64,000 nt of DNA from Thermoanaerobaculia bacterium (GCA_044226625.1 JBGAGQ010000003.1:1-64000); one strand, 5' to 3'. Counted from the first letter of the stretch, positions 39,192 to 55,475 are shown. Notes: generated by a model from the sequence alone, not told the origin. Program-made: numbers and translations.

Positions 39192-41048
39192 CTACCATCC
39201 TTCGAGCTTCCTCCGGATCAGCTGTTCGCCCTTGTTGGGATCGGTCGCTTGGGCGTGCGTGATGCCGTGGCTCGCGAGAATGCGCAGCGCATCGGCGCGG
39301 TCGGGGTGGGGCGCGTGCACCGGGCTCGAAGCGGCCTGATACAGGTTCCGCGCGTGGAGCGCGCGCTCCTCACCGAGCCTTTGGCCCGCCGGGGCGTTCT
39401 TCTTCTGAAAATGGCGGTAGAGCTTGTAAGCCCCGAGGCCGAGGGCGGCGAGCGCGCCGGCTCCGGCGAGACCCCAACCGATCGGGGTGAACAGCGCCCC
39501 GGCGCCGAGCAGGCCCGCGAGCAGGGCTCCTCCTCCCAACGCTCCGATTCCCGCGCCGATGCCGCCCAGGATGTTGCGCTTGCGGCGTTTGGCCAGCTGC
39601 CCGCTCATGTGATCCGCCGCGGCGGTCATGTTCGCGCTCATCGGCGGCCCCGCGCGGACGGCGTCGATCTGCGTCTTGTGCTGATGGGCGCGATAGGCCC
39701 GATAGCCGGCGCGCCCCGCGACGATCGTCTGGACGCCCGCGCCGATGCCGGCCGAGGCGAGGCCGGTGGCGGCCGGCAAGATCGAGGTTCCGGCGTGGCC
39801 GACGGCGCTGATCGCGTTGCCCGCCTGCATCCCTTGGCTCGCTGCGTCGGCCAGATTCACGGTCGCATCCACGGCGAGGCGCTTGGCCGTGCTCCGCGTC
39901 TCGGCCTGGGCTCCGGTCTCGTTGGGCTGAGGCGAGAACGTGTCGCGTATCCCCCGGCCGAAGCCCCTCACGCCCCCCTCCTGGCCCATGTTGCGGAGGC
40001 CCTGGTACGTGGCCAGGAGGTCCGCGCCCCCCGAGGCGATGTTGAGACCCGCTCCGGCCGGCCCGGTGACGCCGCTCGCGGCGCTGGTGTAACTCGTGGG
40101 CGCGACCGCGGCGGGAGGGGTGACCAGGGAGTTCACGGCGCCCAGGCCGCCGATCACCCCGGTCTGCGTTCCAGGGGAGTTGATCGCGAGGAAGTTCTCC
40201 GCCCGCGTGCCGAGGGAGGGGGGAGCGTACGGGGGAAGAGGAGGCAAGCCGGCAGGGGCGGCCCACGCGGCGGCGGGTGCTCCGGGTGGGCCGCCGCCAC
40301 CACCCCCGGGTCCCGCGGGAGCCAAAACCGCGCCGGCCGCAGCGGGAGCGGCGCCGCCGCCGCCCAGCGCCGGGGCGAGCATCGCGGGCGGAGCCGGCAA
40401 CGCGGCCGCCACAGCACCCGCGCCGGGTGCCCCCCCTCCACCGCCCAGCGCCGGAGCCAGCATCGGGAGCGGAGCCGGCAACGCAGCCGGCACGGCGCCC
40501 GCGCCGGGTGCGCCCCCTCCACCGCCCAGCGCCGGAGCCAGCATCGCGGGCGGAGCCGGCAACGCGGCCGCCACAGCACCCGCGCCGGGTGCGCCCCCTC
40601 CACCGCCCAGAGCCGGAGCGAGCATCGCGGGCGGAGCCGGCAACGCGGCCGCCACAGCGCCCGCGCCGGGTGCGCCACCTACACCGCCCAGCGCCGGAGC
40701 CAGCATCGGGGGCGGAGCCGGCAACGCGGCCGGCACAGCGCCCGCGCCAGGAGCGCCACCTCCACCGCCCAGGGCCGGAGCGAGTATCGCGGGCGGAGCC
40801 GCCGGGGCCGGGAGCGCGGCCGGCACGGCGCCCGGCAGTTGGTCCATGTCGTCGTCGTGAGGCCTCGGTTTGCGCTGAATCGGCGCCGCTCCGTGGACGG
40901 CCAGATTTTCGAACCGGTGCCCAAATCGCGTAGCAGCCTCCAGAGCGATCGAGACGGATCGCGGCGCCTCGGACGGCGATTCGGATCCGACGGCGCCCGA
41001 GCCCTCGGTGCGGGCGCTCTCCGCCGGCCGCTGGATCGAAGCTCGCAT
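39192..41048 (-). CDS. GHRFENL-leader protein A: Ala/Pro/Gly repeats and hydrophobic C-terminal domain
   Basis: Start MRASIQRP chosen by alignment with paralog MRTHAQRP; RFGHRFENL...PIQRK; C-terminal GGGALLAGLLGAGALFTPIGWGLAGAG. Confidence 0.75.
   Translation of the reverse strand: MRASIQRPAESARTEGSGAVGSESPSEAPRSVSIALEAATRFGHRFENLAVHGAAPIQRKPRPHDDDMDQLPGAVPAALPAPAAPPAILAPALGGGGGAPGAGAVPAALPAPPPMLAPALGGVGGAPGAGAVAAALPAPPAMLAPALGGGGGAPGAGAVAAALPAPPAMLAPALGGGGGAPGAGAVPAALPAPLPMLAPALGGGGGAPGAGAVAAALPAPPAMLAPALGGGGAAPAAAGAVLAPAGPGGGGGGPPGAPAAAWAAPAGLPPLPPYAPPSLGTRAENFLAINSPGTQTGVIGGLGAVNSLVTPPAAVAPTSYTSAASGVTGPAGAGLNIASGGADLLATYQGLRNMGQEGGVRGFGRGIRDTFSPQPNETGAQAETRSTAKRLAVDATVNLADAASQGMQAGNAISAVGHAGTSILPAATGLASAGIGAGVQTIVAGRAGYRAYRAHQHKTQIDAVRAGPPMSANMTAAADHMSGQLAKRRKRNILGGIGAGIGALGGGALLAGLLGAGALFTPIGWGLAGAGALAALGLGAYKLYRHFQKKNAPAGQRLGEERALHARNLYQAASSPVHAPHPDRADALRILASHGITHAQATDPNKGEQLIRRKLEGW
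40360..40835 (-). repeat. About 6 x 81-bp coding repeat (APPAMLAPALGGGGGAPGAGAVAAALP)
   Basis: Read directly in protein and DNA. Confidence 0.85.
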
Positions 41049-41080
41049 AGGGACGCGACCCGGGGTCGGAAAACCGGCGA

Positions 41081-41266
41081 TCAGAGCGCGCCGGTCCCGC
41101 TCTCCGGGCCCGCGGGCTCCACTCCCTCGAACGCGGCCCGCTCCGGAGATCGAAAGAGCCACGGCCCGTCGCTCGAATCCAGAAAATCGTCTACGGAGAG
41201 ATCTTCCGAGGATTCGGCCACGGGCTCGGATGCCAAGGGACGGTCGAGGGGCTGCTCCGAGTCCAT
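41081..41266 (-). CDS. Small acidic 61-aa peptide, PatE-like precursor candidate
   Basis: Strong RBS GGAGGAGG; EDLSVDDFL and AFEGVEPA resemble cyanobactin RSI and AYDGVEPS. Confidence 0.55.
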   Translation of the reverse strand: MDSEQPLDRPLASEPVAESSEDLSVDDFLDSSDGPWLFRSPERAAFEGVEPAGPESGTGAL

Positions 41267-41362
41267 GGGACCTCCTCCCGCCGCAAGAGTTGTAGGCGAT
41301 GCTGAAGGCATCCTGACAGAGTCGCGACGCACCGACAAGCGCATTTCCTATTCAGGATCACG

Positions 41363-53593: not shown

Positions 53594-53616
53594 GGAGGTT
53601 CTCCTTCGGAGCTTCG

Positions 53617-53630
53617 CGGAGGATACGCGA
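53617..53630 (-). promoter_or_regulatory. Shared 14-bp upstream motif TCGCGTATCCTCCG (copy 1)
   Basis: Identical copy at 55504-55517; contains TATCCT, the -10 hexamer of the tRNA promoter. Confidence 0.5.
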
Positions 53631-53654
53631 AAACCGTTCGAGGGTGCTCGTCAG

Positions 53655-55475
53655 CTACCAGCCTTCGAGCTTCCGCCGGATCAGTTGCTTGCTCTTCTCG
53701 GGATCCCCTTGCATGTGATCGTGGGTGATGCCGTGACTCCCCAGGACCGCCATGGCATCGGTTCGGTCCTGGCCGCCGCGCTGGTAGGCCGCGTGGAGGT
53801 TGTCGGCGTGCGTTTTGCGCTCCGAGCCGAGCCGATCTTCCTTCTTCTTCTTGAAGTGACGGTAGAGCTTGTAGGCGCCGAGGCCTGCCGCGGTGAGCGC
53901 GCCGGCCCCGGCCAGTGCCCACCCGATCGGGGTGAGCATGGCGGCGCCTCCGAGAAGCCCCGCGAGCAAAAGCCCGCCCCCCGCCGCGCCGGCCGCGGCG
54001 CCAAGGCCGCCGATGATGTTGCGCTTGCGACGCTTGCCCAACTGCTTGCTCATGTGGTCCGCGGCGTCGCTCACGTCCTGGTGCACGTTGTTGCGCGCAG
54101 AGAATCCTCGGCGGACCCGATCGACCGCCCGCTTGTGGTGCCAGGCGCGCCCCATACGCCAGGCGGCCCGGCCGGCGACGATCCCCTGGACGCCGGTGCC
54201 GATACCGGCCGACGCGACGCCCAACACCGGCGACAGCGCCGAGGTGCCGCCGTGGACCAGGGAGCTGATCGCGTTCGCCCCCTGCATGCCCTGGCTGCTC
54301 GCATCGGCGAGGTTGACCGGTAGATCGACGGCGAGGCGTTTGGCGGTGCTGCGGGTCTCCGCCTTCTGTCCCGTTTCCCCTCTTCGGAAAGAGAACGTGT
54401 CGCGCAGGCCGCGGAAGAAGCCGCGGATTCCTCCCTCCCGGCGCATGTTGTTGATGCCCTGGGCGGAAGCGACGAGATCGGAACCCATGCCGAGAACGTT
54501 CAAGCCGGCGCCGATGCCCGTCGTCGCGGTCCCCATCTTCGGCGGTATGCGCGAGCTGCCTGGAAGCTGCGAAGGAGGGGTCAGGAGCGAGTTGACGCCC
54601 GAAGCCCCACCGACGACGCCGGTCTGGGTGCCCGGCGAGTTGATCGAGATGAAATTGGCGAGGGGCGAGTCGAGCAGATTCCCGCCGCCGCCTTGCGGCG
54701 GATTCGGATTCTGCATGTGCACGGGAGGATTCTGATTGACCAGGTTCGGCGGAATCTGGTCGTTCGGATTCGGATTGTCGTCCTGGTTCGGATTCGGGAC
54801 GATGTCCTGAACCGGGTTCGGATTGTCGTTCTGGTTCGGATTCGGGACGAGGTCCTGAACCGGATTCGGGTTGTCGTCCTGGTTCGGATTCGGGACGATG
54901 TCCTGAACCGGATTCGGGTTGTCGTCCTGGTTCGGATTCGGGACGATGTCCTGAACCGGATTCGGGTTGTCGTCCTGGTTCAGGTTCGGGACGACGTCCT
55001 GGTTCAGGTTCGGGACGATCGGATGCTGGTCCTGATTCGGAATTTGGATCGGGACCGGAAGCGGGTTGTGATTCAGGTTCAGGTTCGGGTTCTGGATGGG
55101 TACCTGAGCCAGGTTCAGAACGGGAGCGTTCAACTGCAAGTTGGGCAGATTCTGCCCGTTCTGTGGAAACGTTCCATAGTTCGGGATGTGTTGACCGTGC
55201 AGGAGCGATCTGCCGGCACCCCTCATTCTCTGGATCGCCGGAGCGGCCGGTCGAGGTCCGATCGGGAGCCGCCATGGCAAACGGGACGGCTCGCCGCTCT
55301 CGGACTCCAAGCCTCTGGATTGCCGCGAGCTCAGGTTCTCGAACCGGTGGCCGAGGCGCGACGCGGACGCGAACGGCGACGCCTCGCGCGCCGGCTCGTC
55401 GCGCGCAGCCGCCGAATCGGTCTCGGTCGAGCCGGTCGAGGAGGCTGCGGCGGGACGCTGAGCGTGGGTCCGCAT
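53655..55475 (-). CDS. GHRFENL-leader protein C: Asn/Pro/Gln/Asp repeats and hydrophobic C-terminal domain (paralog of 39192-41048)
   Basis: RLGHRFENL...PAIQR; shared ETRSTAKRLAVD, KRRKRNI, TPIGW, LIRRKLEGW. Confidence 0.8.
   Translation of the reverse strand: MRTHAQRPAAASSTGSTETDSAAARDEPAREASPFASASRLGHRFENLSSRQSRGLESESGEPSRLPWRLPIGPRPAAPAIQRMRGAGRSLLHGQHIPNYGTFPQNGQNLPNLQLNAPVLNLAQVPIQNPNLNLNHNPLPVPIQIPNQDQHPIVPNLNQDVVPNLNQDDNPNPVQDIVPNPNQDDNPNPVQDIVPNPNQDDNPNPVQDLVPNPNQNDNPNPVQDIVPNPNQDDNPNPNDQIPPNLVNQNPPVHMQNPNPPQGGGGNLLDSPLANFISINSPGTQTGVVGGASGVNSLLTPPSQLPGSSRIPPKMGTATTGIGAGLNVLGMGSDLVASAQGINNMRREGGIRGFFRGLRDTFSFRRGETGQKAETRSTAKRLAVDLPVNLADASSQGMQGANAISSLVHGGTSALSPVLGVASAGIGTGVQGIVAGRAAWRMGRAWHHKRAVDRVRRGFSARNNVHQDVSDAADHMSKQLGKRRKRNIIGGLGAAAGAAGGGLLLAGLLGGAAMLTPIGWALAGAGALTAAGLGAYKLYRHFKKKKEDRLGSERKTHADNLHAAYQRGGQDRTDAMAVLGSHGITHDHMQGDPEKSKQLIRRKLEGW
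54770..55020 (-). repeat. About 5 x 48-bp coding repeat (NPNPVQDIVPNPNQDD)
   Basis: Read directly in protein and DNA. Confidence 0.85.

Follow-up and report, generated by a model that had tools for sequence, protein, structure and literature searches.

The cargo of extracellular contractile injection systems (eCIS), which are phage-tail-like injectors, has in published work been found mainly through operon proximity, and the N-terminal signals described for it are disordered and have no conserved sequence (bioRxiv 10.64898/2026.05.27.728243, PMC8213781, PMC11297309; here and throughout, published systems are compared as they are described in the accessible portions of the cited reports). Two questions are open for these injectors, namely how cargo is chosen and what function the near-universal DUF4157 domain has. 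We describe here a sequence-defined tag at the N-terminus of three proteins encoded in a 64,000-nucleotide stretch of a Thermoanaerobaculia bacterium genome (GCA_044226625.1, JBGAGQ010000003.1:1-64000; this whole stretch is called the window), and the recurrence of this tag on proteins dispersed over the same genome. The three genes probably encode cargo of the bacterium's injection machine, which is itself encoded far from them.

In AlgoCIS of Algoriphagus machipongonensis, cargo is no longer loaded when the disordered N-terminal domain that precedes DUF4157 is deleted, whereas deletion of DUF4157 has no such effect, and the AAA+ protein Alg15 has been proposed to unfold and load the cargo (bioRxiv 10.64898/2026.05.27.728243). 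[quoted passage not shown] It differs from AlgoCIS in that the tag is a sharply conserved motif, found mostly on proteins without DUF4157 (14 of 17) whose genes are dispersed and not in the operon, the comparison being one of organization. The signal peptides of PVC and Afp cargo (Pdp1, Pnf, Afp18) are likewise N-terminal, hydrophilic, disordered, transferable and without DUF4157, and are recognized via a Pvc15-type ATPase (PMC11297309, PMC11495950). Unlike these, the tag has a conserved motif at a fixed position, and PVC payload genes adjoin the operon. Danov et al. note that a specific sequence conserved among eCIS signal peptides has not been detected (PMC11297309).

DUF4157, according to Geller et al. 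2021 (PMC8213781), is a core eCIS marker placed N-terminally of toxins that have long linkers, and PVC-type polymorphic toxins include HopH1/M91-type peptidases, with the domain proposed to act as a releasing peptidase (Zhang et al. 2012, PMC3482391). These toxins share with the tagged proteins a constant N-terminus, variable C-terminal modules including HopH1/M91-type ones and long linkers, and they are often found without an adjacent immunity gene (PMC3482391, PMC8213781). The window proteins differ from them in lacking the defining HExxH zincin domain, only the pre-domain segment being retained. In Streptomyces, CIS effectors have been reported that contain transmembrane helices and extended disordered or coiled-coil stretches and that have a small DUF4157 protein as partner (PMC11126660, PMC13277306). 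Two of the window genes, called genes 1 and 3 below, may be compared with Sle1/Sle2 and Tme, which have extended regions of disorder or coiled coil and, at the C-terminus, a transmembrane helical hairpin (PMC13277306, PMC11126660). Glu/Arg-rich linkers of a coiled-coil-like kind occur in some of the gene 1/3 homologues. The Sle1 gene, unlike genes 1 and 3, adjoins a sheath gene, and Sle1 is said to be related to tape-measure proteins (PMC13277306).

While cargo signals of eCIS are thus already known, the new element, within the literature examined, is a conserved, sequence-defined tag that is spread over many dispersed proteins without DUF4157. No description of its Gly-His (GH) motif, or of dispersed cargo with the tag only, was found in the accessible text of the literature on eCIS, DUF4157 and PVC metallopeptidases, the supplementary alignments of which may show it.

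A conserved N-terminal tag and its copies in the genome

The window is the first 64 kb of the 220-kb contig C81, in a genome of 6.6 Mb (133 contigs, about 68% GC). Three genes on its minus strand have ATG starts at 41048 (gene 1), 53593 (gene 2) and 55475 (gene 3), and their third-position GC (GC3) of 0.79–0.82 is of the coding type expected for genes in this genome. The encoded proteins begin with M-x(4)-(Q/T)-R-P-A, continue with about 35 Ala, Ser, Pro, Gly and charged residues, and then contain A-(T/S)-R-(L/F)-G-H-R-F-E-N-L followed by (P/A)-I-Q-R. The Gly of the motif is residue 43, 45 and 42 in the products of genes 1, 2 and 3, respectively, and PIQR or AIQR follows the GH motif after 6–8 residues in two of the proteins and after about 30 in the remaining one. 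This common N-terminus had been recognized in the initial annotation of the window, and is confirmed by translation, by GC3 and by the uniqueness of the strict motif pattern, which in a six-frame translation of all 133 contigs (6.6 Mb) has only three matches, i.e. the window genes.

A hidden Markov model (HMM) was built from the three N-termini, as had been suggested in the same annotation, and iterated once over the stop-to-stop open reading frames (ORFs) of the genome, followed by a 15-row tag profile. The iterated HMM identified 12 ORFs at E ≤ 3e-10 and weaker ones on contigs C53 and C84. With the 15-row profile, matches were found at 17 places in the genome. Profile matches to the tag reach E-values of 1e-10 to 1e-21. 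Three of these places are on proteins with the DUF4157 domain (Pfam eCIS_core), one of them broken, and 14 are on proteins without it. The generalized layout of the tag, which occupies about the first 60–85 residues, is M-x(4-6)-RP, some 35 residues, A-(E/T/S)-R-(L/F)-G-H-(R/D)-(F/L)-E-x-L and P-I-Q-R.

Gly and His of the motif are invariant in the 15 copies, while Glu and Gln are retained in 90% or more of them, at a mean column identity of 30%. All four Gly codons and both His codons are in use at the two invariant positions, so that the peptide rather than the DNA is under selection. The Gly is located at median residue 44 from the inferred start, and 74–92% of the residues before the motif are Ala, Pro, Ser, Gly, Thr or charged. 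A Sec-like hydrophobic stretch was not found in any of the 15 copies (the highest Kyte-Doolittle mean over 15 residues in the first 60 is 1.21), the twin-arginine motif not having been specifically searched for. Judged by the composition and hydropathy of these copies, and by the predicted local distance difference test (pLDDT) values of a tagged protein on C53 described below, the tag has the hydrophilic, disordered character without Sec signal that is a feature of eCIS cargo.

The C-termini of 13 of the 14 tagged proteins without eCIS_core were compared (a second copy on C84 was left out) and group into 10 BLAST families. The tagged proteins consequently display a feature of polymorphic toxins, a constant N-terminal region joined to varied C-terminal modules within one genome. 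Three of the 13 C-termini match Peptidase_M91 ('effector protein'), one with 35 bits against a cut-off of 25 and two below it (22.7 and 18.3 bits), and HELxH motifs are present in all three of these proteins. Some of the tagged genes are paired, namely genes 2 and 3, two genes on C14 and two on C84. The second tagged protein of C84 is encoded at 78328-79884 (L015:7790-9346, minus strand), 1.4 kb from the other tagged gene, and no Pfam family matches its C-terminal half significantly (DUF7587 reaches 18 bits, less than the cut-off).

Genes 1 and 3 are paralogues with C-termini that are 59% identical over 347 aligned positions (E-value 5e-99), and they differ only in their linkers, which consist of near-perfect tandem repeats. 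The three proteins had initially been described as divergent downstream of the tag, which is true only of these linkers and of the product of gene 2. The gene 1/3 family is rare, with 14 clusters among 5.8 billion, two of which are the window's own proteins. Eleven homologues were fetched; the GHRFE tag is present in seven, and the other four start downstream of its expected place. The C-terminal domain of about 335 residues is conserved among the homologues, but the linkers are wholly different, being Pro/Gln repeats, Glu/Arg-rich and coiled-coil-like, or Gly/Ala/Pro repeats.

For the gene 3 C-terminal domain, AlphaFold2 gives an all-helical model, with a mean pLDDT of 53 that is too poor for a fold search, and a PDB search with a profile of the gene 1/3 domain found no relative (best E-value 0.13). 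In a Pfam search with the three window proteins nothing was above the cut-off, the matches to DUF533 (14.9 bits) and Cornifin (27.7 bits) both being of low complexity. Our best guess, by analogy with Sle1 and Tme, is that genes 1 and 3 may encode a membrane-inserting effector. The C-terminal part of gene 2 forms a singleton family, and gene 2 has no Pfam match at E ≤ 1 and no sequence relative in PDB. Candidate similarities in the ESM Atlas were under the guide value of 0.9 and were not used; these were a BMT5-like / NpmA-type methyltransferase for gene 2 (0.86), and unnamed clusters and a cluster of an RTX hemolysin fragment for the C-terminal domain of gene 3 (0.85–0.87).

The injection system and the distribution of the tag

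A complete contractile injection system (CIS) is encoded on contig C53, which has both of the two sheath matches of the genome. In addition to the two sheath genes, the locus contains genes for an AAA+/winged-helix ATPase, CIS_tube, a Phage_base_V spike, Baseplate_J, Tail_P2_I and a fibre-like DUF6519+Laminin_G_3 protein; as is the case for eCIS cargo, the tagged proteins are thus encoded in the same genome as an injection system with an AAA+ ATPase. Between the ATPase and tube genes lies a gene for a 216-residue eCIS_core protein (C53:23451-24098), which has this tag too (..AERLGHDFARL..PVQR), some 40 residues before its zincin domain. In a model of the full-length protein the core has pLDDT values above 90 (residues 71–150), and the N-terminal region including the motif is disordered (pLDDT about 50–55). 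A second tagged eCIS_core protein is encoded on C16, and in the whole-genome scan the eCIS_core family was found on C53 and C16 only. At about 34.1–35.5 kb and 37.7–39.5 kb of C16, this tagged protein (595 residues), in which repeats of about 30 residues follow, is seen together with an upstream near-duplicate. The eCIS_core match of the near-duplicate is split over two frames, with a TAG stop inside the tag match, and it is probably a decayed copy.

The window proteins have no match to PF13699 at E ≤ 1 and lack the HExxH zincin motif of eCIS_core, but the GHx(F/L) segment that precedes the domain in some eCIS_core members is present in all three. That a GHxF-type segment precedes DUF4157 had been stated in the initial annotation, correctly so, since it is found on the C53 protein. 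A set of 120 small eCIS_core relatives of that protein was also examined, and in 28 of them the element (F/L/I/M)GHx(hydrophobic)xx(L/I/V/M) stands before the domain. The Gly of this element is at residues 38–59 in 27 of the 28 proteins, and shuffled upstream regions gave a mean of 0.08 element matches, with a maximum of 2 in 500 shuffles. The 28 proteins include all 15 close orthologues and 12 of 104 more distant ones. The closest named eCIS_core relative is from a Longimicrobiaceae metagenome-assembled genome (57% identity).

In a representative library of 1.84 billion proteins, the tag profile gave 29 matches at E ≤ 0.001, eight of which are the present genome's own. In 27 of the 29 the match starts no later than residue 22, the exceptions being an unrelated repeat protein and a protein with two tandem copies of the motif. 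Pfam scanning of 28 library matches identified eCIS_core in one and Peptidase_M91 in four. A word-indexed search with the tag profile against longer proteins gave 10 matches, mostly the present genome's own proteins.

Eleven of 101 related genomes are tag-positive, i.e. the present genome (G000), five of the seven other genomes of the same genus (G001 to G007), with 1–7 copies each, and genomes outside the genus with single weak matches. A sheath orthologue with 67–88% identity is present in G002, G003, G005 and G006, and these are exactly the other genomes of the genus with 5–7 tag copies (17 in G000). G004, G001 and G007 have another type of CIS, with a sheath that is 43–48% identical, and 0, 1 and 0 tag matches, respectively. 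The eCIS_core proteins of G002, G003 and G006 have the GH tag, and those of G004 and G001 have a different, Cys-rich type of N-terminus. Tagged genes without eCIS_core are located 2.7 kb (G002) and 0.24 kb (G005) from sheath genes, in divergent orientation, so that adjacency to the eCIS operon, which does not apply to the window genes, is seen for tagged homologues in these two relatives. Contig C53 ends just past the sheath genes, and the position equivalent to that of the tagged gene in G002 and G005 would lie beyond its end.

Possible roles of the tag

It appears fairly likely, by analogy with known loading signals, that the tag is a lineage-specific loading sequence of the C53 system and that the three window genes are orphan cargo. 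A portable tag on orphan effectors had been put forward in the initial annotation, and this is supported by the presence of the tag on the DUF4157 protein of the CIS locus and on 14 other proteins with 10 C-terminal families among 13, by its N-terminal position in the database matches, by its tracking of one CIS lineage and by its occurrence next to sheath genes in two relatives. We propose that the tag is a portable, intrinsically disordered N-terminal module that would mark the cargo of the genome's single CIS, of the Afp/PVC/AlgoCIS type. In the cytoplasm of the producer, the AAA+ ATPase and/or the small eCIS_core protein would recognize the tag, and unfolded cargo would be threaded into the tube lumen and ejected upon sheath contraction, as is assumed from AlgoCIS and PVC. 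The window genes would then represent orphan cargo in the sense that they have the tag, lack a DUF4157 domain and are not located beside the system, and genes 1 and 3 could encode membrane-inserting helical effectors that are joined to the tag by fast-evolving repeat linkers.

The genome may be seen as a natural experiment, in which a tag of fixed position is common to the DUF4157 protein of the locus and to 14 dispersed proteins and tracks one system lineage in the genus. If the tag is a loading signal, a catalogue of cargo could be drawn up from sequence alone. Many effector families without annotation, the rare membrane-type gene 1/3 family among them, would become testable, and a compact motif would be available for mechanistic work on recognition.

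Several observations weigh against a loading function. As first annotated, the window has no DUF4157 or eCIS structural gene, and no eCIS_core or sheath match was found in the window or elsewhere on contig C81, whereas eCIS-associated toxins are usually recognized by such adjacency. Ten of the 13 compared C-termini, among them those of all three window proteins, were not assigned to any toxin or enzyme family, and for this reason we can only infer that the tagged proteins are effectors. The presence of eCIS_core alone does not discriminate, as the family is found in 66 of the 101 genomes (nine of the 11 tag-positive and 57 of the 90 tag-negative ones). For the test of co-occurrence of tag and injection loci suggested in the initial annotation, eCIS_core is thus too common to be informative, but multi-copy tags do match one sheath lineage within the genus. 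Even in the genus, G001 has one tag match without the matching sheath lineage, and since the eight genomes compared are related and not independent, the pattern is suggestive rather than statistical. Finally, according to the authors of the AlgoCIS work, conservation of loading sequences does not extend from one system to another (bioRxiv 10.64898/2026.05.27.728243), and the likeness of the tag to proven loading sequences is therefore one of position and character and not of homology.

Instead of being read by the ATPase, the tag could be a docking or processing signal for the DUF4157 zincin. The small eCIS_core protein would bind the GH motif in trans, as an adaptor or chaperone to the spike or tube, or, in a variant, would cleave near P-I-Q-R and thereby release the effector. 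We consider this unlikely, and it would refine a loading function more than oppose it. In Streptomyces, Sle2, a small DUF4157 protein, binds to spike proteins and to the N-terminal region of Sle1, an effector that lacks DUF4157 (PMC13277306), and both a chaperone role of DUF4157 in cis or trans (PMC11297309) and a releasing peptidase role (PMC3482391) have been proposed. A complex prediction for the tag and the eCIS_core domain (residues 70–190) points weakly in the same direction, with a score of 0.41 against 0.01 for the best of three controls, agreement between runs in at least 70% of contacts and a partner pLDDT of at least 46. However, this tool was calibrated on 80 solved complexes, of which 58 reached the mark, and on 110 mismatched pairs, of which 2 did; at scores of 0.60 or lower it was reached by 7 of the 80 and by both passing mismatches, so that a score this weak is more often wrong than right. 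The motif is, moreover, not predicted to be packed on the core in cis in the full-length C53 model (pLDDT about 55, no secondary structure), loading in AlgoCIS works without DUF4157 (bioRxiv 10.64898/2026.05.27.728243), and the motif shows no significant likeness to the core domain's first segment (probability 1.9% and E-value 0.026 by hhalign). The ATPase, the small zincin or both may be the receptor.

A more far-reaching proposal, which seems doubtful to us, is that the tag is a sequence-defined cargo marker for one CIS lineage that is read in trans by the small eCIS_core protein as receptor or adaptor. If this were true, DUF4157 would be explained as the receptor or adaptor for a tag which it also carries, each CIS lineage may have a tag of its own, and the cargo repertoire (here 14 dispersed proteins of about 10 families) would far exceed the catalogued operon-adjacent toxins. 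The tag would then be the eCIS counterpart of the MIX-type (marker for type six effectors) motifs of type VI secretion. N-terminal motifs of the MIX type mark otherwise unrelated and often orphan type VI effectors and allow their discovery genome-wide; the parallel is an analogy only, the secretion machine being different and no sequence relationship being known.

The tag might also be an inherited constant region without a current targeting role, i.e. a remnant of zincin loss or a recombination handle of polymorphic toxins, on proteins that act inside the producer or leave it by another route. This would agree with the constant N-terminus and variable C-terminus of polymorphic toxins (PMC3482391), with the dispersal of the orphans over 10 contigs away from the CIS, and with the weak likeness of the motif to segments of eCIS_core itself. 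It is nevertheless quite improbable in view of the invariant Gly-His and the conserved Glu and Gln in an otherwise variable alignment with varied codons, which point to selection on the peptide, the fixed distance of the motif from the start codon, and the tagged genes adjoining sheath genes in two relatives. A Sec- or Tat-like signal for another export route was not seen either, with the limit on the twin-arginine motif given above. As to the resemblances themselves, the tag core R-L-G-H-R-L-E-x-L was aligned by hhalign with the first eCIS_core segment F-G-x-D-F-S-x-V-R-V, the alignment of low probability already mentioned, by which a relationship is unproven, and was matched by a loose motif pattern, without statistical support, to the catalytic helix L-L-G-H-E-L-A-H-V. 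An origin of the tag by internal duplication might be conceived on the basis of such sequence resemblances, for which there is no statistical support.

Gene 1 on one side and genes 2 and 3 on the other flank, on the same strand, a cluster resembling those for ribosomally synthesized and post-translationally modified peptides (RiPPs), and the initial annotation that the tagged genes bracket this cluster is correct as a description of the layout. This layout is what would speak for the tag serving the PatG-like protease or the tailoring enzymes of the cluster as a leader or recognition sequence, with the three proteins as substrates or partners, a role that we regard as very improbable. The arrangement is not conserved in relatives, as a full-length PatG-like gene is found in none of the seven other genomes of the genus and gene 3 orthologues are found in three of them, and in G003 the genes on the right-hand side keep their order (gene 3, DinB, VTT/ATP-grasp, GNAT), with the cluster and genes 1 and 2 absent. 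Furthermore, 14 of the 17 tag copies are elsewhere in the genome, and the precursor-like ORFs of the cluster have a different motif (PVHR) and lack the tag. A leader function is contradicted by these comparative data. Conserved linkage of tagged genes to RiPP-modifying enzymes was not seen in the same-genus genomes, and a functional link to a peptide-processing cluster, implied by their co-location, is unsupported. The tagged genes and the RiPP-like cluster are best read as two accessory elements in one variable region, their adjacency being incidental.

Features and neighbouring genes in the window

The coordinates of the three tagged genes, their parts and the precursor-like ORFs are listed in Table 1. 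Gene 3 is located 61 nt upstream of gene 2 on the same strand.

Table 1. Tagged genes, their domains and precursor-like ORFs (window positions)
Feature	Position	Strand	Description
Gene 1	39192..41048	-	618 aa: N-terminal tag, Gly/Ala/Pro repeat linker, helical C-terminal domain with hydrophobic hairpin; GC3 0.79
Gene 1 tag, residues 1-60	40869..41048	-	MRASIQRPA...ATRFGHRFENL...APIQRK; profile match C81:40848-41048, E 1.8e-20
Gene 1 tandem-repeat linker	40360..40801	-	81-nt unit, 5.5 copies, 91% matches; Tandem Repeats Finder
Gene 1 C-terminal domain, conserved	39192..40199	-	About 335 aa; all-helical model, Gly/Ala-rich hydrophobic hairpin near the end
Gene 2	52637..53593	-	318 aa: N-terminal tag and highly charged C-terminal part without recognizable family
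Gene 2 tag	53417..53593	-	MYAQATRPA...ATRLGHRFENL...QPIQRV; profile match E 4.7e-20
Gene 3	53655..55475	-	606 aa: N-terminal tag, Pro/Asn/Gln/Asp repeat linker, helical C-terminal domain; GC3 0.82
Gene 3 tag	55224..55475	-	MRTHAQRPA...ASRLGHRFENL...PAIQRM; profile match E 2.5e-11
Gene 3 tandem-repeat linker	54765..55001	-	48-nt unit, 4.9 copies, 94% matches; Tandem Repeats Finder
Gene 3 C-terminal domain, conserved	53655..54665	-	336 aa; AlphaFold2 model all-helical, low confidence
Cys-rich precursor-like ORFs	41408-41704 and 47227-47421	-	Common PVHR motif near the N-terminus

The RiPP-like cluster extends over 41408-49661 on the minus strand, between gene 1 and genes 2 and 3. In addition to the precursor-like ORFs, it encodes a 503-residue nitroreductase-domain protein, two TPR-sulfotransferase fusions, and a PatG-type S8 protease (macrocyclase-like) with PatG_D and PatG_C domains. 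A YcaO-type cyclodehydratase was not found among the ORFs scanned. A PAS histidine kinase with a LuxR-type response regulator and a cupin are also encoded between gene 1 and genes 2 and 3. On the other side, just before gene 1, there is a PIN-domain toxin-like gene (38200-38643, plus strand).

Other genes of the window include one for an Alginate_exp outer-membrane porin (17499-19346, minus strand), the presence of which shows that the organism is diderm. Two large TPR-CHAT (caspase-like) proteins are encoded nearly in tandem on the minus strand, at 24972-27833 and 29825-32755, with an unannotated 496-residue ORF (28338-29828) between them. An 869-residue fusion of DUF4062, a Ser/Thr protein kinase and an FGE-sulfatase-like domain is encoded at 9588-12197 (plus strand), near an AAA_14/DUF4143 ATPase gene at 6713-7939, and this fusion gene is located in a stretch of lower GC content (62–65% over 4–14 kb).

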